Assembly: GCA_049322915.1 (NCBI GenBank)
Contig: JBMOPW010000014.1
Coordinates: 509,527-573,526 of the forward strand
DNA: 64,000 nucleotides
Direction: 5' to 3'
Source of the DNA: Candidatus Zhuqueibacterota bacterium
Lineage (GTDB): Bacteria > Zhuqueibacterota > Zhuqueibacteria > Thermofontimicrobiales > Thermofontimicrobiaceae
Made by a program: the position numbers and the translations under genes. The notes beneath the pieces are model-generated. The model saw nothing but the letters and a program-made list of their open reading frames with translations, made no database searches and was not told the origin of the DNA. Below are positions 16,710 to 36,009 of this stretch, piece after piece (position 1 is the stretch's first letter; every line of letters begins with the position of its first letter).

Positions 16710-17091
16710 ATGGACTCCAGCGATTCTTTTGAAAAAATGTGAGGCTTAATGTAGGAAATGTGCAGCAAAATATCAAGCGAATAAATGGATGATGTCCGTC
16801 TTCCTGCTACCGAACCGCGCTGTAATTTCGAAGGGCCTGCCAGCGGAGTAGTTCCGCGCGACTGTTCGCAAACAAGCTTGCGCCCAGCCGGCGCGCTCGC
16901 GGGCAGCGCCGTGAATATTCCAATAATTTCATGAAACAACGGCTGCGCAGGCATATCGTTTGCTTCGGATTGCACAGCAGGCGCTGATTGGTGTTGATTC
17001 TCCGGAATGCGGCGATAAAAATGAAGGCGGTAATTCCTGCCGCGACATCAGTTTTCAATCAGGCTTTCCAAACAACAAATCATAAAGCGAG

Positions 17092-19890: not shown

Positions 19891-20076
19891 TTGCGGAGAC
19901 CCTGTTCATAAAAAATGAAAGGATATCGAGGGCGCCCATCGGCCTGAATTTTTTTAAGAAATGCCTGAATCCCGGACCCAATTTCATACCGGACATTCGG
20001 CATAACCACGACATATAGTTCCCAGTTAACCAAAAATTCAATAAAATCTGTAAATGAAATAAAGGAGACGCTTCAG

Positions 20077-20997
20077 TTGAGACGGACTACAGTTTTATTG
20101 ATCATTACTTTATCCTGTTTTGGCCGCCAGAGCGTGGCTCAGAATAATACCCCTGAAGCTCAGGATAGTAAAGTAATTATCATCCCGCAAAATCAGAGTC
20201 GGACGTTCATGTTCACCAATCAGAGCGGACTTTTTTATTGCGGCGAAACAAGTCTTCCCAATACCTCTCAGTTTCATGGTTTAAGCTATTTAACCCATGA
20301 GTTTTTAGAGGATTATATTGTTGACATCGGCGGGACAGAATTGAAGCGGTCGGCTTCGGAAGTGCATTTGTTCAGCAAGAAGTTCATTCGCTTCTTCAAA
20401 AATACGGCTATTCAGGAAGAGGTCGCCATTGCCGATTCTCTGCCAGCGCTGATTGTGAAAATCACTTCCGACCAGAAAGCGCCCATGACCATTGCGCCGG
20501 TCATTGCCGGTTCGAACCAGGCTCAGGACTATGTGCTTTATTGGTCCACGTCGGATAAAATTCTGTACATCGCCAAAAAGCATCACCTGGTTCGGGACGA
20601 TGATAACAATTATCCAATCTGGATCGGCGTGTGCACTTTCCCCAATGGCGAATACACCACAGGATACGAGTCCCTGCCGGACCGCGACGCGATTATCGAG
20701 GACGCAACATTCGTCCCCGGCAAACTCAATGTGTACCTGGAAGGGGACGCTTACATTTTTTTCATCATTGATGACAGCAAGGCCGGGATTTTGCGGAAGA
20801 GAAATCGAATACTCAAAAAGCTGGAGATCGATTTTGAAAAATCGAATTCGCAGATCGATGGCGTTCGGCAGGCGTGGTTTCAGGACACATCCCGGTACAT
20901 ACGTACCAATTCTCAAATACCAAATTACATGTATATTCCAACAAGCAAAGAGACACATTCAAAGCTCAAGCAAAACATGATTTCTTGCATGAAGTGA
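20077..20997 (+). CDS. exported hypothetical protein, possibly like the N-terminal region of amylo-alpha-1,6-glucosidase-type proteins
   Basis: AAGGAG RBS, TTG start, signal peptide; directly follows the GH13 gene; no catalytic domain recognisable. Confidence 0.45.
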   Translation: MRRTTVLLIITLSCFGRQSVAQNNTPEAQDSKVIIIPQNQSRTFMFTNQSGLFYCGETSLPNTSQFHGLSYLTHEFLEDYIVDIGGTELKRSASEVHLFSKKFIRFFKNTAIQEEVAIADSLPALIVKITSDQKAPMTIAPVIAGSNQAQDYVLYWSTSDKILYIAKKHHLVRDDDNNYPIWIGVCTFPNGEYTTGYESLPDRDAIIEDATFVPGKLNVYLEGDAYIFFIIDDSKAGILRKRNRILKKLEIDFEKSNSQIDGVRQAWFQDTSRYIRTNSQIPNYMYIPTSKETHSKLKQNMISCMK

Positions 20998-21114
20998 ACA
21001 GCAGCCTGAAAATTGAAATTTTGAAGTTCAGGTATTATGTTTTCCAGCATTGGAAAAATCCGATCGCTGTGACAGCGAACTGCCCGTTCATTTCCCGAGC
21101 GTTCATCCCATACG

Positions 21115-21963
21115 CTAAAATACTTTCCTGAATGTCTTCTTCAACACCGACTGATGACGCATGATTTTAATTTTCGATTTGAAGTATTTGAACCGGCTAA
21201 AGGTTCGAAGCACTTTGAGATAGGATTGAATCAGAGGCTTCATATCGGAGAGACCGCGAGGCAGTAATTCCAGGTTGATCACACCCCGGTAGTTTTGTTT
21301 TTTGAGCGTGGCAAGAATTTCCTCGACCGGCAGCGTCCCGCCCATATCGAATGGCAAATGGGCGTCGTAATCGGCTTTACAATCCGACAGGTGCATGAAT
21401 CGTATTTCGCCATTGGACTGCTGTAAAAATGTCACAGGATCCTCTCCCTGCAGATAGTAATGGGACGCATCGAAACACTGTCCCAGCAGCTTCGCACCCA
21501 ATCGTTCTTTAGCCCGTTTGTAGAATGCGTCGAAACGCGCCTGAGGCCAGCCCTGCACATTTTCAAGGATGATTGGCGGTTCCAGCGCGGCCAAATTATT
21601 CAATAAATATTCCGTCGCAGCTTCTTCAGAGGAGGAGGTGCGTCTTTTTTCCGGGGGATGTGAGAGACAGTATTTGACATGCAGGTCCTTGTGGTAGGTA
21701 TTGATAAGCCGAATCAGTTCCTGTATTTCGTCGTCCCGTTCGTGGCAGGAAAAATCGAAACCATCGTCATGACTATTGGGCAGATGAAAGCCGGTTTCAA
21801 TGTCGCCAATGTGTTTGACGAACTCGGAGATGTCCTCAAACACCGGCCGAGAAATTTCGACGAACTCCAGCCCCATTTTTTGAACGAGTTTCAAAAAGAA
21901 GGTCGGAGATATTCCCTTGAATTTGTTGATGGTAATACCTACTAATGTTCGGTTTGTTTTCAC
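21115..21963 (-). CDS. sugar-phosphate isomerase/epimerase family TIM barrel (AP endonuclease 2-like)
   Basis: Metal ligand motifs ILENV, FDASH, MHLSD, HLP, INLE. Confidence 0.75.
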   Translation of the reverse strand: MKTNRTLVGITINKFKGISPTFFLKLVQKMGLEFVEISRPVFEDISEFVKHIGDIETGFHLPNSHDDGFDFSCHERDDEIQELIRLINTYHKDLHVKYCLSHPPEKRRTSSSEEAATEYLLNNLAALEPPIILENVQGWPQARFDAFYKRAKERLGAKLLGQCFDASHYYLQGEDPVTFLQQSNGEIRFMHLSDCKADYDAHLPFDMGGTLPVEEILATLKKQNYRGVINLELLPRGLSDMKPLIQSYLKVLRTFSRFKYFKSKIKIMRHQSVLKKTFRKVF

Positions 21964-22324
21964 GTGCCTGCCCTTCGATCAAAATTTCTGTGCGGTGAAA
22001 AGAATATACGTTGCCTGCGATTGAAATGCAAGGTGAATATCTCAATTTTATATTCGCCGGAAAAATCGCCCGATAAAAGCATCGCTCCCGGTCGACCCTG
22101 TCGTAAGGATAGTTTAACCGAATTTGCCGTCGCTTGTTCCGGCCAGGGCCAGCATATTTCGACAGCACCGGGTTACGAAAAGGGAACGGCCTGATCGCGT
22201 TGGAATCCGCAGCAATGCCAGCCCATTGGTGAAGCCGTTAAATTCGATTAACGACTGATTTTTCTCTTGTATTTTAAACAGATATTTTTATATTTTACGT
22301 GACCTTAAAAAACAGGAGCACGAA

Positions 22325-22951
22325 ATGACGCACGTTTCAGTGATTGACCATCCGCTGATCAGTGATAAGTTAACCCGACTGCGCGATAAAGACGCGCCGT
22401 TTTTCACGTTTCGGAATCTGGTTCGGGAGATAGCCACCATACTCGCCGTTCAATCGTCCTTCCATTGTTCGCTGAAGGAAACGCCGGTGGAAACGCCGCT
22501 TGAATCCACTGCCGGAAAAATTCTGGCGCGGGAGATTGTGATTGTTCCGATCCTGCGCGCCGGCCTGGGCATGGTCGAAGGCTTTTTGAGCATTTTCCCG
22601 GGGGCGAAAATCAGTTTTCTTGGCGTGTACCGCGATGAGGAGACATTGAAGCCGGTCGCGTATTATAAAAATATTCAGGCGTCTGTCGGGGAGGCGGAGA
22701 TCTTTTTGCTCGATCCGATGCTGGCGACGGGCGGCAGCGCCGAGTATTGTCTTTCGCTCATCAAAAAACATGGCGGGAAAAATATTACGCTGGTGACAAT
22801 CATTTCAGCGCCGGAGGGAATTGCGCATATTCATGAAACGCATCCGGACGTGAGGATTGTAACCGCGTGCGTGGACAGGGAACTCAACGATGATGGGTAT
22901 ATTTTGCCGGGATTGGGTGATGCAGGGGATCGACTGAATGGGACGATTTAG
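22325..22951 (+). CDS. upp: uracil phosphoribosyltransferase
   Basis: HPLI, VPILRAGLGM, YRDEETL, LDPMLATGGS, YILPGLGDAGDRL. Confidence 0.97.
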   Translation: MTHVSVIDHPLISDKLTRLRDKDAPFFTFRNLVREIATILAVQSSFHCSLKETPVETPLESTAGKILAREIVIVPILRAGLGMVEGFLSIFPGAKISFLGVYRDEETLKPVAYYKNIQASVGEAEIFLLDPMLATGGSAEYCLSLIKKHGGKNITLVTIISAPEGIAHIHETHPDVRIVTACVDRELNDDGYILPGLGDAGDRLNGTI

Positions 22952-24011
22952 CACGTATTTTTGGGCCGCTTTTTTCATCTTCATCAACATGCAGATCGGC
23001 CTGGCAAGCGACAGTGACAGTCTGATTCAGCGCGGGATTGAGCTGTCGATCAACCATCGTTACGCCGAAGCGGAATCGATTTTCGCGCAAATCATCTCAG
23101 AAAATCCGGACCAGCCTGAAGGCTACTTTTTCATGGCGGCGACGATTCAATCCAAAATGATGGATTATGAATCAGATACCTGGGACAGGGATTTTCACCA
23201 TTACATCGAACTGGCCATTGCCACATCGGAAAAACAACTGGCCGAACACCCGGGGGACAATCTGAGCCTGTTCTACCAGGGCAGCGCGCTCAGTTATCTC
23301 GCGTTTTACCAGGGTCGAAAGCAGGAATACGTTGCCGCGCTTCGAAACGCAATGGCCGGTATTTCCAGATTGAAGCGCATCGCCGGGACAGACCCTGAGT
23401 TTGCGGACGTCTATTTCGGGCTTGGCTCGTACAAATACTGGTGGAGTCGCGCCACGAAATATCTGAACTGGCTGCCGCTGCTGTCCGATGATCGCCGGGA
23501 TGGCATTCGCATGGTGGAACGCGCCGTTGAACAGGGACAGTTCACGCGCTATGCAGCGATGAATGAACTGATCTGGATGCTGCTGGATGCCAGCCTGTCT
23601 GGCGAGGCTTTTGCCTGGTCGCTGCGCGGTTTGGAAAAATTTCCGGACAGCCGATTCTTCCTCTGGGGCGCGGCGAAAAGCGCATTGGCCCTGGACAAAA
23701 TCAACGACGCAGAACGCTACTTCACCCGGCTCCTGAATTCCATCACCGCTGAGCCAATCAATAACGGCTACAACGAGTCCATCTGCCGCATCAATCTGGC
23801 TGAAATAAATTTTGAACTGAAACACTTCGAGCACGCGCAGAGCCAACTGGATCGATTGACCGGCATGCAATTGGCCCCGGGGATTGAGAAAAGACTGGTT
23901 GACCAGCGGGAGAGGGCCAGCCAACTTCAAAAGAAATTGTCGAAATCAGCCAGCCAGTCGCGCGCATCAGTTTTCGAAAACAAGCTTACAAATGTACAGA
24001 GCGGCAAGTAA
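22938..24011 (+). CDS. exported TPR-repeat protein
   Basis: Signal peptide, helical TPR-like repeats (DVYFGLGSY); overlaps the upp stop by 14 nt. Confidence 0.7.
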   Translation: MGRFSTYFWAAFFIFINMQIGLASDSDSLIQRGIELSINHRYAEAESIFAQIISENPDQPEGYFFMAATIQSKMMDYESDTWDRDFHHYIELAIATSEKQLAEHPGDNLSLFYQGSALSYLAFYQGRKQEYVAALRNAMAGISRLKRIAGTDPEFADVYFGLGSYKYWWSRATKYLNWLPLLSDDRRDGIRMVERAVEQGQFTRYAAMNELIWMLLDASLSGEAFAWSLRGLEKFPDSRFFLWGAAKSALALDKINDAERYFTRLLNSITAEPINNGYNESICRINLAEINFELKHFEHAQSQLDRLTGMQLAPGIEKRLVDQRERASQLQKKLSKSASQSRASVFENKLTNVQSGK

Positions 24012-24506
24012 TCCGGCTGTATCGGCGATCAAACCGACCGGGACGGCATGCCGCGTTTTTTTAATGCCGACGGCGCCAAAATAGACCGCGACGACATAAA
24101 AGGTGGTTTCGGAACAGCCGAAGAAGGTGGAAACCAGCCGGCCAATGAACGAATCCGGGCCGTGCTCCTTCATCAGCTCCGTGGCAATGCCGAGCGTTCC
24201 GCTGCCGGAGAGAGGGCGCATCAGCGCTGCCGGCAGGGCTTCGGCCGGCATCCCCAGCAGATTTGTGAGAGGCGAAATAATTTTCACGAAGATATCCATG
24301 GCCCCGGACGCGCGAAACATTCCGATGGCGACCAGTATCGCGACCAGATAGGGGATGATTTTCACAGCGACTTCAAATCCCCCTTTGGCGCCGTCGATGA
24401 AGGATTCGTACACTTTGACTTTGTTTTTCATGGCCAGCACAGGGATGATGAAGAGCAGCAAGGGGATCGACCAGACCGAGACGATTGTAATGATTTTTTC
24501 GAACAT
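23967..24506 (-). CDS. spmB: SpmB-like (nucleoside recognition gate) membrane protein
   Basis: VYESFIDGAKGGF, PAALMRPLSGSG, SETTFYVVAVYFGAVGIKKTRHA. Confidence 0.9.
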   Translation of the reverse strand: MFEKIITIVSVWSIPLLLFIIPVLAMKNKVKVYESFIDGAKGGFEVAVKIIPYLVAILVAIGMFRASGAMDIFVKIISPLTNLLGMPAEALPAALMRPLSGSGTLGIATELMKEHGPDSFIGRLVSTFFGCSETTFYVVAVYFGAVGIKKTRHAVPVGLIADTAGLLAALYICKLVFEN

Positions 24507-25153
24507 TATTTTTCCTCCTCAGCTTGAGCGTTGTCCTGAGCAATGGCCTTATCCTTTGGGGCTTCATTGATTCTGAAAACAGGCAGTCGCTGCAGCACCT
24601 TGGCGGCGATGACGGCGACAACCGTGGCGCACGACGACGCGAAGATGGTCGTGCCGATGATTTCCGCCGGATTGGCCGAACCCAACGTGACGCGGACGCC
24701 GATGACCGTCGCCGGGATCAGCGTGATGCTGCCCGTGTTCAACGCCAAAAATGTGGCCATAGAGTTGGACGCCGTGTCTTTGGTCGGATTCAGTTTTTGC
24801 AGCTCTTCCATTGCTTTGAGTCCCAGGGGAGTGGCCGCATTGGAAAGCCCCAGCCAGTTGGCGGCGATGTTCAGCACCATCGATCCCATGGCCGGATGGT
24901 CTGATGGAATTTCAGGAAACAGCCGCTTGCTGATGGGGCTGACGGCTTTGGCCAACATTCGAACAAGTCCGGCTTTATTGGCAATTTCCATGATTCCCAA
25001 CCACAGCGTCATCATGCCGATTAATCCAATTGCAATTTCAACGGCTGTGTTGGCATAGGAAAATGCCGCTTTGGTGACATCATCAATTTTGCCGTTAATG
25101 GCGCCAACAATGAGCGCGATGATCATCAATCCGAACCAGATGTAATTGAGCAT
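24506..25153 (-). CDS. spmA: SpmA-like (nucleoside recognition gate) membrane protein
   Basis: MLNYIW, LWLGIM, ANWLGLSNAATPLGLKAM, LIPATVIGVR; ATG at 25153 after AAGGAG; stop overlaps the spmB start. Confidence 0.9.
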   Translation of the reverse strand: MLNYIWFGLMIIALIVGAINGKIDDVTKAAFSYANTAVEIAIGLIGMMTLWLGIMEIANKAGLVRMLAKAVSPISKRLFPEIPSDHPAMGSMVLNIAANWLGLSNAATPLGLKAMEELQKLNPTKDTASNSMATFLALNTGSITLIPATVIGVRVTLGSANPAEIIGTTIFASSCATVVAVIAAKVLQRLPVFRINEAPKDKAIAQDNAQAEEEK

Positions 25154-25608
25154 ACAAGTCTCCTTGATTCTTTGAGTTCGTAATACGTGAATTAGGCTAA
25201 CCCGACCAGACACCGTGCAGGGACCCGGGCATGGTGACCCGACGAATCCGGCGCAGCGATATGGTGCATGATTTTTACATGGAGTTAAATCTATCATTTT
25301 TTTTCAGAGAAGCAAGTGTTTTTTCCGGCGAGTAGATCTGGCCGGATGCGGCGCTGTTGGTTCAGGCTAACTCTGAAAAATGTTCTTGATTTTTAATTGT
25401 ATAAATAATATGTTAGGTTTCTCGGAGATTCATTTTAAAAAAAATCGCAGATGAAGATCATTTGTGTTCATTGCAGGCCTGTGGAACAGGCGCTTAGTTA
25501 TATCAAGTATATGTGAACTTGAAAAGTTGTTGCGTTATTCTCATTTTGATTTATGGTTAACATTACAAGGAAAGCCTGATAAATTTACATAAAAAACAAG
25601 AGGTCTTT

Positions 25609-25851
25609 ATGAAGACAATAACGTTGCCGGCTCATTTTGATGGTAAAAAAATCTGCCTGGATGAACCTTTTGATCTAGAACCAAATACAAAACTGATAGT
25701 GACAATCTTGCCGATGAATGAACACGATAATGAACATGACGCCTGGTTACTCCTATCAAGAAAAAGATTAGTAGATTCATATGCTGAGGACGAACCTGAA
25801 TATTCCTTAGATTTAATCAAAGAGAAGGACTCTGATGATGAAGGAAGGTAA
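25609..25851 (+). CDS. putative antitoxin
   Basis: Small acidic protein (AHFDGKKICLDEP...DEPEY) overlapping the start of a PemK-like toxin gene. Confidence 0.6.
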   Translation: MKTITLPAHFDGKKICLDEPFDLEPNTKLIVTILPMNEHDNEHDAWLLLSRKRLVDSYAEDEPEYSLDLIKEKDSDDEGR

Positions 25852-26190
25852 TGTAGTCCTTACACCTGTTCCCCAGGCAGATGGAAAGATAAAAAACAGA
25901 CCAGCAATAATCTTACGTGAGATGCCACTTTACCGTGATTTTCTTGTTTGCGGTATAAGCACACAATTAAATAATGTGTCAAAGATTTTGATGAAATTAT
26001 TTCTACTGTTGATACTGACTTTGAGCCGAGTGGCTTATTGGAAGAATCGTTAATACGGCTTGGTTTTCTTGCAGTGTTGCCTCGTAGCAGCATCTTGGGT
26101 TCAATCGGTTCAATTTCGGTTGAACGACATAGACGCTTATTGAAAACTCTGAGCGAATTTCTGATGGATAATCCTAATAATATCGCCTGA
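25838..26190 (+). pseudogene. PemK/MazF-family toxin, frameshifted
   Basis: MKEGNVVLTPVPQADGKIKNRPAIIL...VCGISTQ continues in a shifted frame after about 25973 as VKDFDEII...SGLLEESLIRLGFL...LGSIG...LLKTLSEFL, ending at TGA 26188-26190. Confidence 0.75.
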
Positions 26191-26312
26191 CAAAAAGAAC
26201 AACCTGAGCAAACCGATGGGCTTCCATTGAACTTTAGTTGATACGTTTCAAGTTTTCTTCTTTAAATAGCCTTTGCTGTAAGCAGTTTGGCAGGTTAATG
26301 TTGGCATTGGGC
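26185..26312 (+). repeat. attC site (degenerate core boxes)
   Basis: R'' GCCTGAC contains the toxin stop; AACCTG-A-GCAAAC pairs with GTTTGG-CAGGTT; R' ATTGGGC. Confidence 0.6.
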
Positions 26313-26451
26313 TGTCGGTCTGATTTTGTCAAACATGCAAAATTATCCCATGAAGAGGCAATGTTATTTTTGTTGTTCCGGGCTGAAGTCTTAAATTGTT
26401 TCGGGATGTTATGCAGTAACTATTTAATCACTTGTTGGGTGAAAGGGAACA

Positions 26452-27258
26452 ATGAAGAGAATATCAACAGCGTGGGTGTTCGTCTCCCACTCGACGAAGG
26501 ACATGGAGAAGGTGCGACGCGTCCGCGACGCCATCGAGGATGCGGGTAGCGAGCCGATTCTGTTCTTCCTCAAATGTCTCGGCGACCACGATGAGATTGA
26601 CGACCTGATTGCGCGGGAGATTCAAGCCCGGAATTTTTTCCTGCTCTGCGATAGTTCAAACGCCCGAGATTCCGATTGGGTTCAGGCCGAGATTGCCCAC
26701 GTCAAGTCTCTCGGGGATAAGAGAGTCGAGAACATCGACCTCGACGGTGACAGGGAGCGCCAGATCAACGGGATTCAATCTCAGATGAAACAAGCGACGG
26801 TCTTTCTCTCGTACGCAAGAAAGGACGAGGCATTGGTTGCACAAGTCCGGTCTGCTCTGATCGCGAACGACTTTAGCGTATGGGACCCGTCAGATGACTT
26901 GGATGCGGGCGATGACTGGGGGAAACAACTGTCCGCTGCTGTTGAAGCGTCCGCGAGGTTTGGGTACTTCCTCCACTTCCTCAGCACGGCATCTCTATCG
27001 TCGAAATGGGTTGCTCGTGAGACTCAGAAAGCGTTGGCGGCGGGTATAGGTCGATACTTACCTATCCTTCTTGATCCCATATCTCCCAGCCAAGTCGTGC
27101 CTCCATTCCTCCGCGAACGCCAGTGGATTGATTTCACATCCCGAAACCTGGATGTCACATTGTCCGTCCTGCTTCGAGCGATGGGAGTCAAAAACACCGA
27201 ACAACAGGGTGGTGGGTATTCACCGCCCGCTACGCGGCTGCCAAAACCCGCACCCTGA
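26452..27258 (+). CDS. tandem TIR-TIR domain protein
   Basis: Two TIR units: VFVSHSTKD...SDWVQAEI and VFLSYARKD...SKWVARE...QWIDF; both keep the catalytic-position Glu; the C-terminus reads through an attC. Confidence 0.8.
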   Translation: MKRISTAWVFVSHSTKDMEKVRRVRDAIEDAGSEPILFFLKCLGDHDEIDDLIAREIQARNFFLLCDSSNARDSDWVQAEIAHVKSLGDKRVENIDLDGDRERQINGIQSQMKQATVFLSYARKDEALVAQVRSALIANDFSVWDPSDDLDAGDDWGKQLSAAVEASARFGYFLHFLSTASLSSKWVARETQKALAAGIGRYLPILLDPISPSQVVPPFLRERQWIDFTSRNLDVTLSVLLRAMGVKNTEQQGGGYSPPATRLPKPAP

Positions 27259-27274
27259 ACATTATATGTTAGGC
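27196..27274 (+). repeat. attC site
   Basis: R'' ACCGAAC; CAGGGTG-G-TGGGT pairs with ACCCGCACCCTG; inner hairpin; followed by ATTATAT and a perfect GTTAGGC. Confidence 0.7.
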
Positions 27275-27282
27275 ACAGCAAA

Positions 27283-27789
27283 ATGGGATACATCTACGTA
27301 CTTTCGAACCCTTCGATGCCCGGTCTCGTCAAGATCGGTTGCACTGATCGCGCTCCAGACGAACGGATAGCAGAACTGTCAAATTCAACGGGAGTTCCTA
27401 CGCCATTTAACTTGGAGTTTGCCGTATTCCTGCGCGATCATTCCGAAGCGGAAAAAGAAATCCACCAGACACTCGTTGCGCATCGAGTAAGTGGTTCGCG
27501 CGAGTTTTTTCGAGTTTCAGTTGAATCTGCAAAAGAGGCGCTTCTCGACCAGCTACAGGTCCAGATGGTCAGTGACATAGATGGATGGGATGACAGGGCT
27601 GTTGTGCAGATGGTCGAAACGATCCTTAACAAGCGCCCTCGCGTTCGTCAGGCGATCCGGCCCACCCTCACCGTAAAGTTACCAGCGGTGGAGAAAGCCG
27701 CCATCTTATCTTGGAATGATGAAAAATTGATGGAGCTCGTCGATGCAATTTTCTCGGCACGCCCAGTTGTCCGTCGGGAGTTTAAGTAG
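27283..27789 (+). CDS. T5orf172/MUG113-family GIY-YIG nuclease with a short helical C-terminal extension
   Basis: GYIYVLSNPSMPGLVKIGCT, ER..EL..STGVPTPF, EKEIH, REFF. Confidence 0.85.
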   Translation: MGYIYVLSNPSMPGLVKIGCTDRAPDERIAELSNSTGVPTPFNLEFAVFLRDHSEAEKEIHQTLVAHRVSGSREFFRVSVESAKEALLDQLQVQMVSDIDGWDDRAVVQMVETILNKRPRVRQAIRPTLTVKLPAVEKAAILSWNDEKLMELVDAIFSARPVVRREFK

Positions 27790-27808
27790 AGGGACGCTTC
27801 CCCATGTA

Positions 27809-27883
27809 CCCTAATTCGGGGTTCCATGATACGGTCACAAGCCGTGCTGCGCTTGCTTCCGCCCTTGAGCCCCGACGTATGGC
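27809..27883 (+). repeat. attC site (degenerate)
   Basis: R'' CCCTAAT; TCGGGGTTC-C-A pairs with TGAGCCCCGA; inner CAAGC/GCTTG stem; R' GTATGGC. Confidence 0.55.
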
Positions 27884-27995
27884 GGATCATGCCAATTGAC
27901 CCTATTGCGCTGGCTGTTCTTCCCACAAGCTTGACTCCCAGCGAGCGGGCTTGCGGGCTAGCGCCGCGATTAGCTCGTAAAATAAAGGAGAAACA

Positions 27996-28679
27996 ATGAA
28001 CGAAAAAGAAGTTATCAGTTATTTGAAAACCACGGTCCGTGATATGATTATTGACGATGTGATAAGTGTTGCTGAATTCCATTGTAATCAAAATGTAGGA
28101 AGAAATGAAGGATTTTTTGACATTCCACGTCAGGTATTTTGTATAGTGGATTTTCTTGGCTATTTATTAAATCCACCAAGAAAAAACAAAGGACATGATA
28201 CAAGTTATAGAGCAATAAAATTTATAACAGCTTTCTTTCCTGAAACTTATAAAAATATTGCGCCACTTATTTATCAACAATGGAGACATGATACAGTTCA
28301 TACATTACTACCCAAAAAATATATTACTAGACATAATAATGAGGAAATTAAATTATATTGGCTAAGTTCACGTTCAAGATCAAAAGTAAGTCTTGATGTT
28401 CATATGCTCCCAATGTATCAAAAAGGAAAGAGAAATTGCATTACAATTATAGTAAATATGGTCCAATTAGCTGCTGACTTATTAAATGCATTTGATAAAT
28501 TTTTAAAAAAAATTGAAACAGATGATAAAGTAAAAGCAGACAGTATAAAAAGATTTAATGAATTATTTGAGTATCAAGAACCTATTGATGATTATAAGGA
28601 AATAATAGTTAACGTGTGGAAAAATCCTTGCGGTATTTTAGATGGTAAAAACGTCATAGAAAGATTTAATACTTGTTGA
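27996..28679 (+). CDS. hypothetical protein with an R-X4-H motif (candidate HEPN RNase)
   Basis: AAGGAG RBS; very AT-rich; helical; VDFLG...FITAFF...IYQQWRHDTVH. Confidence 0.55.
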   Translation: MNEKEVISYLKTTVRDMIIDDVISVAEFHCNQNVGRNEGFFDIPRQVFCIVDFLGYLLNPPRKNKGHDTSYRAIKFITAFFPETYKNIAPLIYQQWRHDTVHTLLPKKYITRHNNEEIKLYWLSSRSRSKVSLDVHMLPMYQKGKRNCITIIVNMVQLAADLLNAFDKFLKKIETDDKVKADSIKRFNELFEYQEPIDDYKEIIVNVWKNPCGILDGKNVIERFNTC

Positions 28680-28771
28680 TTCTTATCTATAGGTTTTACA
28701 AAATCGTTTTTTTGCTTTTGTTAGAATTTAGTGTTTTAAAATTACTTAAAAATGTTGTCCAATGTTTGCTG

Positions 28772-28897
28772 GGCTAGCATCGGTTTCAACCTGACAAAAC
28801 CGCCTTGTTTTAAATCAAGTTTAGTGGTGAAATTGGAAGTCCTGTGCGTTGTATTAGTTTCAGTGTAGCGGTTTTGCAGGTTAAACCAGCGTTCGGC
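28772..28897 (+). repeat. attC site
   Basis: GGTTT-C-AACCTG-A-CAAAACCGC pairs with GCGGTTTTG-CAGGTT-AAACC, leaving two unpaired bases (G and T on the bottom strand); R' GTTCGGC followed at once by AGGAGA and ATG 28911. Confidence 0.8.
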
Positions 28898-28910
28898 AGG
28901 AGAAATTATC

Positions 28911-29276
28911 ATGATAGAAAAATACGAGCGAGTACCTGAATGGCTGAGGTGGATACTATTGTTGCCGCTGTGCATCATATTTTCTTTTCTCGCTATCTTG
29001 CTTCTATCCCTTTTAAGAGATGACTTTGTTCTCATTCATTCCATTGTCGCCATTGTCAGTTTTGCAGTCGCAATCTACACACTTGCGCCCAGATGGAAAA
29101 GCGGTCTTGTTATGACTTCCCTGATTCTCCGCATGGTTTTCTCTATCGCCATGGTATCCCTGATATTCTTCCTCGGGGAAACCCCTGACCGGACAACATG
29201 GTATGAGATGGGACGAGAGGTCTTGGGGTGGATTGCTGGCTGGACTCTGTACTTCTCCATATTCAGGAATAGGTGA
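28911..29276 (+). CDS. small multi-pass membrane protein (cassette gene)
   Basis: About four hydrophobic segments; RBS directly after an attC R' box. Confidence 0.7.
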   Translation: MIEKYERVPEWLRWILLLPLCIIFSFLAILLLSLLRDDFVLIHSIVAIVSFAVAIYTLAPRWKSGLVMTSLILRMVFSIAMVSLIFFLGETPDRTTWYEMGREVLGWIAGWTLYFSIFRNR

Positions 29277-29280
29277 TCAT

Positions 29281-29616
29281 ATGTGTGAGAGACGGACGTG
29301 GACAGTCATCTGGAAGCCGCAAAGTGTTGCCATCCTTAGCTTAGTCTGGGCGTTTTATCCGGGCACTCCCTATGAGTACTACATTTTGCTTCGCTGGGTC
29401 TCTTGTGGGGTCTTCGCGTTCTTGGCTTTCAAGGCACTTGATGCTAAACAGCAAGGCTGGATTTGGGTGCTCGGGATAACAGCCGCAGTCTACAACCCTA
29501 TCATCCGCTTGCATCTCACTAAAGAGATATGGTCTTTCGTCAATGTTGTTACAATCGGAATCGCAGTGGCATCGGTTTTTGCTCTCAGGATCAAGAATGG
29601 GAGAGACTCTGCCTAA
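29281..29616 (+). CDS. DUF6804-like membrane protein (cassette gene)
   Basis: PYEYYILLRWV and YNPIIRLHL..EIW motifs; the TAA stop lies inside the R'' box GCCTAAC. Confidence 0.65.
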   Translation: MCERRTWTVIWKPQSVAILSLVWAFYPGTPYEYYILLRWVSCGVFAFLAFKALDAKQQGWIWVLGITAAVYNPIIRLHLTKEIWSFVNVVTIGIAVASVFALRIKNGRDSA

Positions 29617-29682
29617 CAAATCGCTGCACCGGACGGTAAAAACGCTGCGCGTTTTTCACGCCGGTTAGCTCAAGCGTTACCC
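29611..29682 (+). repeat. attC site (last of the array)
   Basis: Perfect R'' GCCTAAC; GCTGCACCGGACG pairs with CGCCGGTTAGC; AAAAACGC-TGC-GCGTTTTT apical stem; R' GTTACCC. Confidence 0.85.
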
Positions 29683-29893
29683 AGCCGAACTTCAAAATTG
29701 ACTTTGAAAAATATAACTTAACCAGTCATTCTTGAAATTTATCCGGAGCGAGATGCCTTTAGACATCGAAGCGCATAAAGGCGATGCCCTCCATGGAAAC
29801 ATTTTATTATAGACCTTTCACCTCGTTTCATTTTAGTTGTTACGTGCCCCGAGAGAGGCATTAAAAATTTGATATTTGGAAAGTCATTTTCCT

Positions 29894-31291
29894 ATGATCC
29901 CAATTCCGGAAAAATTTGTCGCACGACTGGAGCAGGCCATTGGCGCGAAGTACGTGTCGGCGGAACAGGAGCGGCTGGAGGCCTATAATTTCGACGGAAC
30001 CGAGTCCCGATTTCTGCCGGGACTCGTGGTTGAGCCGGATACGGCGGACCAGATTTCAGCGCTGATGAAACTGGCCAGCGAATTCAATGTGCCGGTGATT
30101 CCCCGCGGGGCCGGCACCGGATTGAGCGGCGGCGCTCTGGCCGTGAATGGCGGCGTCATTTTGTCCAGCTTGCGAATGAGCAGAATTCTGGAAATCAATG
30201 AAGTCGATATGATCGCCAGGGTCCAGCCGGGCGTCATCAATCTCCATCTGCATGAAGCAGTCGAGGAAAAAGGGCTGTATTATCCGCCGGACCCGGCCAG
30301 TTACGAAACATCGTCCATTGGCGGGAATATCGCCGAGGACGCCGGCGGGCCGCATTGCTACAAATACGGAACCACGCGGGACTATGTGCTGGGGATGAAG
30401 GTCGTGCTGCCGGACGGGACAATGCTGGCGACCGGGGTTCAAACCAGAAAAGGCGTGGTGGGATATGATCTGGCCGATCTCATCATCGGCTCGGAAGGCA
30501 CGCTGGCTGTTGTCACCGAAGCCACGTTGCGATTGATTCCATTGCCGGCAAAGGTGGTCACGCTGCTGGCGTTCTTCCCGGATATTCATTCGTTGACGGC
30601 AAGTCTTGCCGGAATTACCCGGGCCAGGATTGTGCCGGCAGCTCTGGAATTTCTTGACCCTGCCTGCGTGGACGTGATTCGCAACCGCATTCCCATCAAT
30701 CTGCCGCAAGCGACCTCATCGCTGCTGCTCATCGATCTGGACGGCGAGCCTGAAGCGCTGGATCGGCACATTGAAATCGTCGGAGAAATTTGTATGGAGC
30801 ATTTGGCCGATGATGTGCTGATTGCGGAGAGTTCCACCAAACGAAAGGGACTGTGGGATGTGCGGCGCAAGCTGCGGGACGTCATCAAAGAACAGGTCGC
30901 CTTCAAACGGGGCGAGGATGTGACCGTTCCCATCCATGCCATACCAGCGCTGATTGAGGGGTGTTCCCTGATCTCGAAAAAATTTGGGCTGGATAATTAC
31001 AATTTCGGTCATCTGGGCGATGGCAATGTGCACGTGAACCTGACGCATCCGGAGAAGAACGAGCGCATTGTCAACCTGGGAGAACTGGCTGCTGAGGAAA
31101 TTTTCAGGTTGACGCTGGAACTGGGCGGCACAATTTCCGGGGAGCATGGCATTGGCATTTTGAAAAAGCCATTCATCGGCCTGGAATTGTCGCCGCGCTC
31201 CCTTGAACTGCAACGCGCCATCAAACGGGTGTTCGATCCCAAAAACATTTTAAATCCGGGGAAGATATTTCCAGATCCGATGGGAAAATGA
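29894..31291 (+). CDS. glcD: FAD-linked oxidase, GlcD/D-2-hydroxyacid dehydrogenase family (paralog 1)
   Basis: PRGAGTGLSGGA, YPPDPAS, SIGGNIAEDAGG, GSEGTLA, GHLGDGNVH, ISGEHGIG, NPGKI. Confidence 0.85.
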   Translation: MIPIPEKFVARLEQAIGAKYVSAEQERLEAYNFDGTESRFLPGLVVEPDTADQISALMKLASEFNVPVIPRGAGTGLSGGALAVNGGVILSSLRMSRILEINEVDMIARVQPGVINLHLHEAVEEKGLYYPPDPASYETSSIGGNIAEDAGGPHCYKYGTTRDYVLGMKVVLPDGTMLATGVQTRKGVVGYDLADLIIGSEGTLAVVTEATLRLIPLPAKVVTLLAFFPDIHSLTASLAGITRARIVPAALEFLDPACVDVIRNRIPINLPQATSSLLLIDLDGEPEALDRHIEIVGEICMEHLADDVLIAESSTKRKGLWDVRRKLRDVIKEQVAFKRGEDVTVPIHAIPALIEGCSLISKKFGLDNYNFGHLGDGNVHVNLTHPEKNERIVNLGELAAEEIFRLTLELGGTISGEHGIGILKKPFIGLELSPRSLELQRAIKRVFDPKNILNPGKIFPDPMGK

Positions 31292-31384
31292 GGCGGAAAG
31301 AAAAAGCCCCGGAAGCCTGCAAGACAACTTCTCTGGAAATTAACCAGCGTCGTCCCGCCAGATTCCGGGGCGGAAAATCGAAAC

Positions 31385-31891
31385 CTATCGTAGCATGAGA
31401 TTGATACCGGCCAGCAGCGAGAAGTAATCCTGTTTTTCGAAGAAAGTCCAGCGAGCTTCAATGTAGGGCGAAATAGGCTTGACCGGCCCGCCGAAATTGA
31501 GACCGAGCAACACATTCCCGCCGAATTTCTCCTTCTGATCGGAAGTGAGATACTGCGCTGCCACGCCGGCGCCGAAGAACATGGGGCCCCGGGGACGTGG
31601 CTTGAACAGAAAATCGCCGTTGAATTGCCACTGTTTGTATTTTTCGTCGGTGAAGAAGTATTCAAATCCGGGGACAAAATTCCAGAAAATCCCCATGGGT
31701 AGCCAGAAGTGAGCGCCGGCAAAGTAGTTGTCATTTTCAAAATCATTGCCGAACCGAACGCCGATCGCTGACGCCGGCTGGAATCGCGTTGGCTGGGGGA
31801 ATCGCCGGCCGCGCGGTTGCGCGCTCACCGCATTGATGAGAATGACCAGACTTAATACTGTTAAACCCAAACGGATGATGGTGTTCTTCAT
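31385..31891 (-). CDS. small exported protein, probable outer-membrane beta-barrel
   Basis: Signal peptide, alternating aromatic/Gly beta-strand pattern, AGGAG RBS. Confidence 0.6.
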   Translation of the reverse strand: MKNTIIRLGLTVLSLVILINAVSAQPRGRRFPQPTRFQPASAIGVRFGNDFENDNYFAGAHFWLPMGIFWNFVPGFEYFFTDEKYKQWQFNGDFLFKPRPRGPMFFGAGVAAQYLTSDQKEKFGGNVLLGLNFGGPVKPISPYIEARWTFFEKQDYFSLLAGINLMLR

Positions 31892-32559
31892 GGTAGTTGC
31901 TCCTGTAAAGAAGTTATGTTCAGGATGAAGAGGCTTTCGACCATGGGTGAAACGCCTCCCCGCAAATTTGCCAGATGATGGATGACGGTCGTGGAAAAAT
32001 CCAGCGCAGCATCGTCTCCAACTTGAATTGCCTCTGTGTTCACCCAGTCATTTTACAAACCCCGTTCCATAAAAGTGGAGGTCATCCGCGGTCAGGCGCA
32101 TTGCCTCCGAATTTCAGCGGACTCAGAAATTGCTCAAAATGTTGTGGAATGATTTTTCTCGACATACAAGATATTGAAAGCAGCCGGCAGAGGTGAAGGG
32201 TCGTCGGGAATTCATGCCTGTTTTTTGATCTGAAAAATCACCTTTCTGTCCCTGTGCGTACAGAAAAAGTGTACGCCGCAGGCCGGTTCGGTTCAATTCT
32301 CATGGCGCGGGACCATTGGCATTGTCGGGCGCCGGGATTTTGTGTCAGGCCGGAGTGGCTTTGAAAAACGCCCGAAAGAAGCTCTGTCCGTTGGTGAAGG
32401 AAGTTAAAATCATCAATGACAATTCTTAGATTGGATGCGCCGACATCGTTTGATTTCAGTCCGCCGCTGTGTGGCGTGGGCGAAAATTATGAAAATACTT
32501 CTTGTCAGAGAAAAAAAGTTATAGTATATTTCGATCTTTCAAAAATGCGCGGAACCAGG

Positions 32560-33960
32560 GTGGATAAATTGGAAAAAAAATTAGTCAAACAGTTGAGAAA
32601 AATATGCGGCGCGGACAAAGTGCTGACCGATTACCGCGACCGTGTATTTTATCAGTACGATGCGTCACTGGAAACCGGATTGCCGGATGCGGTTGTCTTT
32701 CCTGAGAGCACGGGGCAGGTTGCTGAAGTCGTGAAATTGTGTCGCGAGCGAAATGTGCCGCTGGTGGCTCGCGGTTCCGGGACAAATTTGAGCGGTGGCT
32801 CCGTGGCGATCTGGGGCGGAATTATCCTCCAGCTCTCCAGGATGAACCGAATTCTGGAAATCGATGTGGCGAATCACTGCGCTGTGGTGGAAGCCGGCGT
32901 CTACAATCAGGATCTGCAGGATGCGCTGGCGCCGCACGGATTTTACTTCGCCCCGGACCCGGCCAGCATGCGCGTTTCTACGATTGGCGGCAACATCGCT
33001 GAGAATGCCGGCGGTCCGCACTGTCTGAAATACGGCGTGACGTTCAATCATGTCCTCGGGATGGAACTCGTCACCTCAGACGGGGAGGTGATTCAGCTCG
33101 GCGGCAAGGCGTACGACTATCCCGGCTACGATCTGATGGGTTTGCTCATTGGTTCGGAAGGCACGCTGGGCATTATCACACAGGCCACGCTGAAAATTAT
33201 TCCGCTGCCGGAGAACGTTAAAACCATGCTGGCCATTTTCAACAGCATGGAACAGGCGGCGCACACCGTGACCGATATTATTGCCCGCGGCATCATTCCG
33301 GCCACGCTGGAGATGATGGACAAGCCGATCATTCAGACCGTGGAAGCGACCCATCACCTGGGCTATCCGGCAGACGCCGAGGCCATTTTGTTGCTGGAAT
33401 TGGACGGCCCGGCGGTCGGCATGGATGATCAGGCCGAGGAGATCATGGCCATTTGTCGGCAAAACGGATCCCGAAGCATTGAAGTAGCCCAAACCTCTCG
33501 GCAGCGCGATTCCCTCTGGCAGGGGCGCCGGCTTTCGTTTGGTTCGCTGGCCATGCTTGAGCCATCCATCATGATCGCCGATGGCACAGTCCCCCGCAGC
33601 AAGGTGCCGGCGGTTCTGACCAAAGTGATGGAAATCTGCAATCGATATAACCTCAAGGTCGGCAATGTCTTTCATGCCGGCGATGGCAATCTCCATCCGT
33701 TCATTGTTTTTGATGATCGCAACGCGACAGAAAAAGCGAAAGTCATACGGGCCAGTGAAGAAATTCTCGAAGAGTGCATTCGGGTGGGCGGCACAATCAG
33801 CGGAGAGCACGGGATTGGGCTGGAGAAAAAGCCATCCATGAAGGTGCTTTTTAACGGGACAGAACTCCGGGCGATGCAACAGATGAAGCAGGTATTCGAT
33901 CCGGAGGATTTTCTCAATCCCAATAAAATTTTCCCGGTAACTGAGAAAGATAGTATTTAA
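32560..33960 (+). CDS. glcD: glycolate oxidase subunit GlcD (paralog 2)
   Basis: RGSGTNLSGGS, FAPDPAS, IAENAGGPHCLKYGVT, FHAGDGNLHP, ISGEHGIG; start uncertain (32545/32560); TTGTCA-N17-TATATT at 32502-32530. Confidence 0.9.
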   Translation: MDKLEKKLVKQLRKICGADKVLTDYRDRVFYQYDASLETGLPDAVVFPESTGQVAEVVKLCRERNVPLVARGSGTNLSGGSVAIWGGIILQLSRMNRILEIDVANHCAVVEAGVYNQDLQDALAPHGFYFAPDPASMRVSTIGGNIAENAGGPHCLKYGVTFNHVLGMELVTSDGEVIQLGGKAYDYPGYDLMGLLIGSEGTLGIITQATLKIIPLPENVKTMLAIFNSMEQAAHTVTDIIARGIIPATLEMMDKPIIQTVEATHHLGYPADAEAILLLELDGPAVGMDDQAEEIMAICRQNGSRSIEVAQTSRQRDSLWQGRRLSFGSLAMLEPSIMIADGTVPRSKVPAVLTKVMEICNRYNLKVGNVFHAGDGNLHPFIVFDDRNATEKAKVIRASEEILEECIRVGGTISGEHGIGLEKKPSMKVLFNGTELRAMQQMKQVFDPEDFLNPNKIFPVTEKDSI

Positions 33961-34117
33961 CCTGAATTATTCATGAATTCTACAATAGCCCAACTTAACA
34001 TTATGTTTTCATAATGTGTGAATGTGTATGCAAAATCAAACTCAGTTTTATATTCGAATTTTAAATTTATGCACCATTCAGGTTATCCCGCTTCCTTTAA
34101 AAATACAATGAATAATG

Positions 34118-34384
34118 GTAACCGATCACAGGGATTGAATGTTGTCAGGAGTTTTATTGACAGGATAACAGGATCGAAAGGATTTACAGGATAAATTTCT
34201 GGCGTTTTATGTCTAATAAACATAGACAATGGCTTCTCTGATAGCCTTGCCTGTTTCTTGAACAAAGATCACTTGACTATCAGACCCGTGCCTTGATCAA
34301 CGAGACAAAAACCTAGATCAATTATCCTGTCCATCCTTAACATCCTGTTATCCTGTCAGCTTTTGCATCCCTGTGATCGGTTAC
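34118..34384. mobile_element. MITE-like element (267 bp) with IS66-like ends and a nested inverted repeat
   Basis: Perfect 18-bp TIR GTAACCGATCACAGGGAT / ATCCCTGTGATCGGTTAC; internal TGACAGGATAACAGGAT / ATCCTGTTATCCTGTCA; no clear target duplication. Confidence 0.7.
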
Positions 34385-34447
34385 AACGGATGCACGCCTG
34401 GTCCCGAAACGAAAACATCGTGCTGAAATTAAGGTGATCTAACAAAT

Positions 34448-35782
34448 ATGGGTGAAAGAGTGATTCCCCAAAGCGGACATAGTGATAGAATCAGTACCCC
34501 GGAGGAACTGGCCAGATTTGAAATCGCGGGCAGAGCCGCATCGCAGTTGCTCTACCCTGAGGATAATGCGCAGGTCGCTGAAATATTGACCGCAGCGACC
34601 CGGGAAGGCAGAAAAGTGCTCATCGCCGGGAACAACAGCCAGCGCGATATTGGCGCCGCGATCGAGCGACCTGACTGGGTCATTTCCGTGACGAAAATGA
34701 ACTCGGTCGTAGAACATGATGTGGCGGATCTCATTGTCACGGTTCAGGCCGGCGCGCGACTGCCGTTCATGCAGAATTATCTCAGAAAATCGAATCAGCA
34801 ATTGTCACTGGAAATCCCTGGAGCGGAGGCCCGCACACTCGGAGGTATTGTGGCGACGAACAGTCCGAATGTCTGGCATTCTAGCTACGGCGGCTGTCGC
34901 GATTCAGTCCTGGGTATGAAAGTTGTCTTGCCCGATGGAAGTCTGATCCGCGCCGGGGGCAAGACGGTGAAAAATGTCGCCGGCTATGATTTGAGCAAGC
35001 TTTTCATCGGCACGTTCGGCACGCTGGGTGCGATTACTGAAGTCACCTTCAAATTGTCGCCCATCCCGGCCAGCCGTCAATCGCTCATCGTGGCGTTCGA
35101 TCAGGTTGCTGACGCGTTTTCATTTTCTCAAAAAATTTCCGCAATGAATTTTATAATCAGTCGATATGAATATTATAATCGCGCCTGCGCAGCGACAAAG
35201 TTGAAAGGTCTGATTTCCTCGCCGCAACAACATGGGGTGATTCTGACTGTGATCGGCCATCCGGCCATGGTGCAGGACAGCTCCGGTCGAATCAGAGACA
35301 TTGCCTCCGGGCATGGCGCTGTGGCTGTTCGCGCCATGACCGGGAGCGAGGAAGAATTCCTGCCGAAGCGAATTGCTGAAAATGGAATCACCTCCCACGA
35401 AGCGAATGTCAGGTTCAGCGTGCGCATCAGCGTTCCCAAAGCGAAACTGGCCGAGGCGGCGGCGGTCATCGAAGAGTTCGCCGGACAGCAGAATCTGACC
35501 GCGGCCATCCAGGCTCACATGTTCAGCGGCGTTCTGGACGCTGCATTTACGGCGCAGGAGGTGACTGGTGCTATTTTTCAGCCAATCTACCTGGAGTCGA
35601 TCCGGGAGAAAATCGCTGCGCTGCACGGATCGGTGACCGGGCTGCTCCTGCCTCTGGAACATCGAACGCCGGAGATGGTCTGGGGAAAGACCGGCGGTCA
35701 TTTCGGGCTGATGGCCGCAATCAAAAAGAAATACGACCCGAATGGCATTTTGGTCGCCGGCAGATTCGTCGGCGGGCTGTGA
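34448..35782 (+). CDS. glcE: glycolate oxidase FAD subunit GlcE
   Basis: TLGGIVATN, GGKTVKNVAGYDLSKLFIGTFGTLG, IKKKYDPNGIL..GRF. Confidence 0.85.
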   Translation: MGERVIPQSGHSDRISTPEELARFEIAGRAASQLLYPEDNAQVAEILTAATREGRKVLIAGNNSQRDIGAAIERPDWVISVTKMNSVVEHDVADLIVTVQAGARLPFMQNYLRKSNQQLSLEIPGAEARTLGGIVATNSPNVWHSSYGGCRDSVLGMKVVLPDGSLIRAGGKTVKNVAGYDLSKLFIGTFGTLGAITEVTFKLSPIPASRQSLIVAFDQVADAFSFSQKISAMNFIISRYEYYNRACAATKLKGLISSPQQHGVILTVIGHPAMVQDSSGRIRDIASGHGAVAVRAMTGSEEEFLPKRIAENGITSHEANVRFSVRISVPKAKLAEAAAVIEEFAGQQNLTAAIQAHMFSGVLDAAFTAQEVTGAIFQPIYLESIREKIAALHGSVTGLLLPLEHRTPEMVWGKTGGHFGLMAAIKKKYDPNGILVAGRFVGGL

Positions 35783-36009
35783 CAGGTCACCGATGAATTC
35801 GGGCACAATGGCCTTTTCGCTAGATTGAAAAGAGAGCCCTGTTTTCGAAGAGCGGACTTCAGGTTCTTTGTAATAATGGCCCACATTAGCATTTCTAAAA
35901 TCACCCGAACCGTGAGCGATATTTCTGAAATACCTTACGAATAAGCAACACGATAAATCAACTGGTATCCATTACCGAACAATTGAACTGCAATCGAGGA
36001 GCTTCAGCT

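Follow-up and report, generated by a model that had tools for sequence, protein, structure and literature searches.

An integrase-less cassette array carrying its own attI site in a Zhuqueibacterota genome, probably left by an integron integrase since lost

How does an array of gene cassettes come to stand between two host genes in a genome in which no integron integrase gene (intI) is found? The question is raised by a locus in the draft genome of a Candidatus Zhuqueibacterota bacterium (6.25 Mb in 45 contigs, 96% complete), which we studied in a 64-kb window (G000:C14:509527-573526). Positions below are counted within this window unless a contig (C) or locus (L) is named. Seven co-oriented reading frames occupy 25609-29616, downstream of a minus-strand spmA-like gene with the Pfam domain Gate (24506-25153; present in 28 of the 31 genomes searched), the name spmA being a label given in an earlier note made from the sequence alone. 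They are followed by a gene for a glcD-like FAD oxidase (29894-31291; recognized with Pfam and NCBIfam, below the glcD cut-off, and 83% identical in the congener), which, like all further features, is entered on the plus strand. The earlier note had proposed a CALIN (attC sites in a cluster without an integron integrase) loaded with candidate anti-phage genes. The array is real, if partly decayed, and we consider it probable that it is a CALIN built by an integron integrase since lost from the genome, because three model-confirmed attC sites lie on one strand, no intI was found, and the site is empty in three relatives. The whole array is also contained, without differences or joints, in one 21-kb contig of a sequencing run that is probably the source of this DNA and not independent support.

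The attC sites, with their boxes R'', L'', L', and R', were searched with two home-made covariance models, trained on sites taken from other genomes and given hand-assigned structures: R1 from seven short sites, in which 9 of 16 pairs show changes on both sides across the seven, and R2 from five long sites. Over the 64 kb, R2 gave three matches, all on the bottom strand and within 3.5 kb (next match at E 1.3), where a CALIN has at least two close sites on the same strand; the sole R1 match was 29611-29682 (E 4.8e-8). Best preserved is the long-type attC4 (28772-28897; R2 E 3.7e-14), of which an 86% identical copy lies on contig C32. The short-type attC5 (29611-29682) has a canonical core (R2 E 8.1e-6), and the long-type attC1 (26185-26312; R2 E 2.5e-5) a degenerate one, R'' reading GCCTGAC and R' ATTGGGC, so that R'' is missing its AAC and R' its G. 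A scan for attC anatomy placed 28772 at the top with 18.0 and gave 14.0 to 29611, the background reaching 13.5 and 14.0 in two shuffles and 16.5 at a probable chance site in a housekeeping gene. By comparison with its homolog, attC2 (27196-27274) can be taken as a real but damaged site: the intact attC at L119, behind an 80%-identical TIR gene, has its R' 7 nucleotides earlier, and attC2 carries 7 extra nucleotides at a damaged right end, its in-register R' beginning with A. The decayed attC3 (27809-27883) was recognized from box anatomy and hairpin, by eye and by folding.

Altogether, much of what the earlier note had described stood up: the seven co-oriented genes, stop codons inside the R'' boxes at 26185 and 29611 (GCCTGAC, GCCTAAC), a ribosome-binding site and start codon (AGGAG, ATG) directly after the R' box 28891-28897, the two unpaired bases of 28772 (G and T, extrahelical in the R2 alignment), and the CALIN arrangement itself. 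Of its five attC palindromes, those at 26185, 28772, and 29611 were confirmed by model, and those at 27196 and 27809 proved degenerate. Its clearly different base composition is borne out by a cargo GC content ranging from 0.285 to 0.55 and fails for three of the seven genes, which are host-like (0.50-0.55). Genome-wide, at least 21 distinct attC sites were found at E<=1 with R1 or R2, 150 candidates per search being scored; Rfam gave no match across 20000-36000. Further attC clusters or single sites lie at G000:C36:220365-230672, C14:311522-314993, C12:72422, C32:242119, C2:107295, and C27:39762, some of them carrying toxin-antitoxin-like, Fic, and AAA-13 genes.

The point at which the array entered can be placed by the comparison of the spmA-glcD interval that the earlier note had suggested. 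The two genes adjoin in 3 of 10 relatives' loci, with 300 to 500 bases and no array between them (in the remaining 7, glcD is not adjacent in the DNA fetched), and cargo genes were found at none of the 10; in the three empty loci, attC models returned nothing better than E 0.13. Conservation of the same genes in the same order, together with an absence of attC model matches, which the earlier note had named as the contrary picture, is not what the genomes hold. The congener's empty interval matches window 25376-25415 at 80%, and since this homology ends at the GTT at 25412, the alignment marks that GTT as the insertion point. It falls within a putative host glcD promoter (25386-25414), with TTGATT at -35 (25386-25391), a 17-nucleotide spacer, and TATGTT at -10 (25409-25414), the array beginning at the G of GTT inside the -10 box; the same spacing was read by eye in two other relatives. 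A promoter scan was uninformative (9 sites, 9.0 expected). The right junction is probably the GTT at 29839 (29839-29845), 55 nucleotides before the glcD start compared to 53 in the congener. This arrangement resembles attG insertion and the resulting single attC sites lacking an integrase (SALINs), for which the accessible text of 10.1101/2022.09.11.507474 describes insertion outside the integron at short GWT sites and possible expression from nearby host promoters.

Three elements had escaped the earlier note: an internal attI fragment (element A, 26303-26440), the remnant of a gene-less cassette (element B, 27872-27975), and a hairpin-containing terminal repeat (element C, 29689-29836; 4 strong copies, used to build its profile, and 20 weaker matches). 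Element A shows an extra GTT at 26408, an L-like box at 26422-26428, a 5-nucleotide spacer, and a crossover G at 26434. The segment 26303-26437 is repeated across the genome, and the homology of every copy stops at the crossover position, with fixed sequence up to the G-TT and variable cassette sequence beyond, as expected of an attI. A profile search counted 12 copies at 10 loci (13 matches, one copy being matched in two pieces; the profile had been trained on 7 of the copies), the GTT being kept in 9 of the 12, and the exact motif pattern found 7 copies in the genome and 0 in a reversed control. Second attI copies lie inside the arrays on C19 and C34. Elsewhere, the motif stands beside the 5' end of a divergent intI, as at L096, L202/L230, L204/L228, and L229. 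At L096 it heads an attC array some 200 nucleotides upstream of a divergent 461-residue IntI with an N-terminal extension, and at L202 and L204 the first attC has an R'' exactly complementary to the R box of the motif. The consensus forms of the dif site and of the LexA box were also considered for the motif and set aside by eye, its right arm being variable cassette sequence.

When each species was represented by a single genome, scanning turned up 16 motif loci, 5 of them the same DNA as relatives' loci; within the phylum, a looser pattern matched in 20 genomes out of 167, counting G158, and nowhere in the control. Examination covered 26 of the 32 looser-pattern matches, four from the genome under study, one from G158, and one without a locus being left out. 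The start of a long-type intI lies 123 to 124 nucleotides upstream of three (L228, L229, and L230) and a deleted intI remnant upstream of one; the other 22 showed no intI over the upstream DNA available, at most 1.5 kb and at four of them less than 1 kb, which indicates that many "integrase-less" arrays retain their landing pad. In a set of 20 intI loci, 3 of the 8 whose gene product reaches at least 430 residues clearly had the motif (one by eye), and none of 9 short-type loci did. The two types are split in a tree by a branch of 1.29 with support 99/95, one 363-residue frame falling among the long types; the N-terminal piece of long IntI, searched in 5 genomes without a positive control, gave no match. 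At L108/L233 (G004:C453), an attI has an internally deleted long-type intI remnant 237 to 533 nucleotides upstream. In relatives, the short-type intI at L046, L049, L050, L051, and L055 mostly lack attC sites within the 1.5 kb retrieved, and a small conserved frame of some 110 to 135 residues comes after them.

The absence of an integrase, reported for the 64 kb by the earlier note, extends to the assembled genome, in which the search it had called for, run here with TIGR02249, PF00589, and six-frame profiles, found no intI. TIGR02249 and PF00589 matched only two recombinases, both under the IntI cut-off (the one scanned is XerD-like), and six-frame profiles of relatives' short and long IntI, run over all contigs including the small ones, returned the same two XerC/XerD-like genes. 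What the genome does hold is the broken 5' start of a long-type intI about 170 nucleotides upstream of four attI copies, on the opposite strand: two among the 12 copies by profile (domain E 2.4e-5 and 0.01) and two more by eye among 5 printed, with stops and frameshifts. Read from their sequence, these stubs are relics of complete platforms. No intI or stub lies upstream of the window's own attI, which is not part of a complete integron; since it also starts at the R' of attC1, this copy most likely arrived joined to cassettes.

We propose that a cassette circle recombined through its attC into the promoter GTT, used as an attG-type secondary site, and that the host glcD promoter would thereby point into the array and act as its cassette promoter (Pc). 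The attI would have been a passenger, joined at its upstream GTT box to attC1, and could then have taken in the TIR-TIR cassette. The genome would once have held, or copied, many long-IntI platforms, whose intI genes may have decayed to stubs or vanished, leaving attI and cassettes in place. With attC1 to attC3 damaged and the toxin gene broken, the array is probably frozen on its left side; an IntI arriving from outside should still be able to excise the last cassette, the one that attC4 and attC5 enclose. Several observations weigh against this reconstruction. The sites at 27196-27274 and 27809-27883 match neither R1 nor R2 and stay below 13 in the anatomy scan. Complementarity between cassette 5' ends and R'' (4 to 6 of 7; 6 of 7 for the TIR-TIR cassette start GTTGGGT with attC2) was tried as proof and rejected, as off-diagonal pairs score equally and it fails to discriminate between cassettes. 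Among the other intI loci of at least 430 residues, two are cut by contig ends and three lack the motif. The promoter-like element lies under the threshold of the promoter scan, and the right junction is placed by distance only because the 5' leaders are too diverged to align. Finally, with an assembly 96% complete and several arrays running into contig ends, an intI could be missing from the contigs.

The strongest alternative leaves this structure untouched and concerns the cargo: with a probability only a little under even, the genes would be non-defensive, a dead addiction module and stray metagenomic cassettes kept since no integrase removes them. The first cassette fits such a view. Its 80-residue antitoxin-like gene (25609-25851), which has homologs upstream of pemK at L247 and L248 and a weak RelN-antitoxin match (E 0.072), precedes a pemK/mazF-family toxin gene (25838-26190) frameshifted by a one-base gap near 25967, as measured against an intact 119-residue homolog that matches PF02452 at E 1e-6. 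The C-terminal piece falls in an Atlas PemK cluster (0.95), and a PF02452 search of the genome itself missed the broken gene. The PemK toxin-antitoxin pair of the earlier note is thus present as to family and gene order and lacks an intact toxin frame, and with its toxin frameshifted it is unlikely to hold the array by addiction. The two membrane-protein genes likewise bring no defence match from Pfam or PADLOC: they share one cassette, 7 nucleotides apart, and encode a 121-residue protein with three hydrophobic peaks and no family (28911-29276) and a 110-residue DUF6804 protein (29284-29616; PF20619 E 5e-22).

The first cassette behind the attI bears on both sides of this question. It encodes a 268-residue protein with two TIR domains (26452-27258; Pfam TIR_2 twice). 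In TIR enzymes, a conserved glutamate is catalytic. Among 40 aligned homologs, from a search with 87 matches, itself included, E80 is invariant and E190 is kept in at least 90%, which speaks for function, and the predicted model (pLDDT, predicted local distance difference test, 85) matches TIR NADases and adaptors, the nearest structures being the SPARTA TIR, AbTir, and SARM1. The protein also gives weak ThsB profile matches. On the non-defensive side, its scores stay far under the cut-offs set for named TIR systems, and in 77 neighbouring frames no partner recurs. An attC follows the homolog in 8 of 68 metagenome loci, two of which look like duplicates; 80 loci had been fetched, 6 being dropped for lack of a full frame and 6 for having less than 130 nucleotides of room (two of these with an attC). 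It shares with Thoeris ThsB and bacterial TIR NADases the TIR fold and the conserved glutamates, E80 and E190, and differs in having two TIR domains in one short chain and no adjacent effector gene; no ThsA-type gene adjoins it, and a PF18185 search matched nowhere, controls included. At L173, L138, L179, L170, and L191, homologs adjoin long proteins of about 1100 to 1250 residues; by eye, one such neighbour has a TIR-like beginning, another a P-loop NTPase motif.

The next gene counts against a non-defensive reading. The 168-residue T5orf172 protein of the GIY-YIG clan (27283-27789; PF10544 E 4e-18) matches the PADLOC candidate PDC-S57 at E 2.5e-33 over 141 of 212 model positions, the PDC systems being predictions according to the accessible text of 10.1101/2024.01.29.577857. 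The AT-rich 227-residue protein (27996-28679), a HEPN-like candidate, has 110 relatives and a confident model (pLDDT 95); in 78 aligned sequences H102 is invariant and R97 and H98 are kept in at least 90%, R97 and H102 giving the R-X4-6-H spacing of HEPN proteins. Its model resembles HEPN toxins weakly, with Z 5.2 to 5.9, below the level that the tool calls meaningful; the best (Z 5.9, root-mean-square deviation 3.9, 124 aligned residues) is tied with unrelated bundles. Foldseek gave no match, VIA weak ones, and Pfam no family among the 78 relatives, and its Atlas clusters are unnamed. The R-X4-H protein of the earlier note thus kept its conserved motif and gained little from HEPN likeness, and the defence island holds as a plausible reading for the TIR-TIR, T5orf172, and R-X4-H proteins, not for the broken toxin or the membrane genes; its suggested PADLOC check gave a match for T5orf172 and left the membrane genes unmatched. 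Judging from conserved residues and profiles, these three are plausible candidate defence genes. The odds that at least one protects against phage are about even, the likeliest modes being NAD+ cleavage, DNA nicking, and RNA cleavage.

Cargo behind other attI copies also speaks against a purely non-defensive reading. Such copies head a cyclase gene with a two-transmembrane partner, a methyltransferase-restriction fusion, an HNH-like gene, an AAA ATPase gene, and further genes, according to a scan of 30 hand-chosen frames among 65 listed. The cyclase pair, on C7, combines SMODS and SLATT genes in the manner of a type I CBASS (cyclic oligonucleotide-based antiphage signalling system), with PADLOC E 2e-101 and 2e-57; there (L250:1597-3015, G000:C7), a degenerate attI directly heads both genes. 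On C19 (L251:11416-12639), an IS91-family transposase gene forms the first cassette behind an attI, with an attC after it, and at the end of G000:C4 an attI is followed by the same start as this cassette.

A bolder extension of the lost-integrase reading, which we offer tentatively and think less likely than not, is that of a distributed integron. A long-type IntI platform would have been copied to many chromosomal places; its copies would shed the integrase and keep the attI, which could also travel as a passenger in arrays; these pads would be loaded in trans, often with defence genes, beside borrowed host promoters; and a gene-less family would recombine repeatedly with an A in place of the crossover G. 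This last point concerns element B, of which the window keeps the right part, with an attC ending in A-TT, not G-TT. The full unit, about 170 nucleotides and gene-less, starts at G-TT, twice at an attI, and its right ends in the genome read A-TT in all 7 cases, where a G-TT crossover triplet would be expected. Six different known neighbours stand downstream of these ends, and for one copy a contig end intervenes. On C28, element B is followed by a cassette beginning TTATGT, whose attC has the R'' ACATAAC, a match that fixes the crossover at the A. The family recurs in 4 other genomes, with A-TT in 9 of 11 printed right ends, and in two of them it follows attI-like motifs. If true, an A for the crossover G would conflict with the rules of IntI1, with an expected penalty of a thousand-fold or more, partners mismatched at the first base recombining 10^3 to 10^4-fold less in the accessible part of PMC2811028. 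A possible way out is that, where R'' still carries AAC, the exchange would need only one G-T wobble. A-type crossovers as a general trait of the genome were considered and rejected: 20 of 21 model matches start R' with G, and a relaxed scan gave mostly noise. A weak element B remnant (E 0.039) also lies at window 16861-16919 between two host genes and begins at G-TT. Behind element B on C19 (L251:3061-7187) stand a Csx27-like membrane gene, a metallo-beta-lactamase-fold gene, and a gene for a 795-residue E1/ThiF-JAB fusion, possibly a ubiquitin-like conjugation defence module.

It is improbable, in our view, that the integrase is present and unassembled, or often supplied by another element, the attI copies then being live satellite platforms served in trans. 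The draft does come in 45 contigs, with attI or attC copies at the ends of C3, C4, C32, C34, and C36, and the accessible text of PMC9024848 states that draft assemblies overestimate CALINs. Element B on C12 shares 92 to 96% identity with its three longest other copies, which suggests recent movement, and IntI above cut-off occurs in 71 of 167 genomes of the phylum (G158 included in the tally). Set against this, six-frame profiles over all contigs yield only XerC/XerD, the stubs beside attI copies hold stops and frameshifts, and no IntI was found in the congener either with the query used. Transposition, with elements A, B, and C as miniature transposons or REP-like (repetitive extragenic palindromic) repeats and the attC likeness incidental, is very improbable and would at most hold for element C: B has a 15- to 16-nucleotide perfect inverted repeat, C is a multi-copy hairpin repeat, in places in tandem, and IS91-like and other transposases lie near some copies, but A lacks terminal inverted repeats, ends exactly at GTT, and stands beside intI elsewhere, two copies of B begin at an attI's G-TT, the family follows attI-like motifs in two further genomes, and no target duplications were seen by eye.

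As the product of a lost integrase, the array joins several known phenomena. Published work already covers CALINs, attG insertion, intI decay, and defence cassettes, as well as a single CALIN that carries an attI of its own. Like other CALINs, half of which lie in genomes without intI, it is small, with at least two attC sites, some degenerate, on one strand and no intI nearby; what sets it apart is an attI lying inside it, which belongs to a defined integrase group, and an insertion point that has been mapped and is empty in relatives. Integron-borne phage defence cassettes were reportedly described by Darracq and Getz in 2025. Small single-gene cassettes with nuclease-like or unknown domains are likewise found in what is accessible of 10.1101/2024.07.02.601719 and 10.64898/2026.03.17.712381; no TIR, GIY-YIG, T5orf172, or HEPN appears in the main text of the former, as far as accessible; the present cargo consists of sequence predictions and may overlap with cassettes tested there. 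An IntI group about 120 residues longer, with frequent intI pseudogenes and intragenomic duplicates, is described in PMC2426708 (clade 15), whose accessible text names no attI belonging to this group and reports no genome carrying a dozen platforms without integrase; the long IntI found here may belong to that clade. In the accessible part of PMC9892861, the CALIN of Shewanella prophage M16-3 is likewise headed by an attI, a single extra copy beside a complete integron; the present genome has 12 copies spread over 10 loci, with three lying inside arrays, and no intI was found in it. According to the accessible text of 10.1101/2022.09.11.507474, attI1 itself is not inserted at a significant rate, whereas attI copies are dispersed in this genome; such copies must hence derive from copied platforms or ride inside cassette circles.

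The dispersed attI family is the more unusual feature of this locus compared to its defence cargo; three candidate defence genes are useful but ordinary for integrons. In open-access phrase searches, no account turned up of a dozen attI platforms without integrase (multi-copy solo attI) in one genome, which does not show their absence from print, and no relevant paper on integrons in KSB1 was found. The lineage is probably candidate division KSB1, judging from one nearby housekeeping gene: of its homologs with an organism name, four are assigned to KSB1, two to Calditrichaeota, one to Bacteroidales, and two to no more than "bacterium". Integrons themselves are common in the phylum, with IntI above the cut-off in 71 of 167 genomes. 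The accessible text of PMC4889954 leaves the origin of CALINs and the expression of their genes as open questions, and that of PMC9024848 calls attI sites poorly described outside class 1. The locus offers a natural case: its insertion point can be mapped to a putative host promoter, a congener has the site empty, and the attI motif, linked to one integrase group, can be searched for; it is less exciting as a defence island and more so as a well-resolved record of how an integrase-less array forms. As a minor observation, element C is found in tandem on the small contigs C17 and C38 and also at the end of C34.

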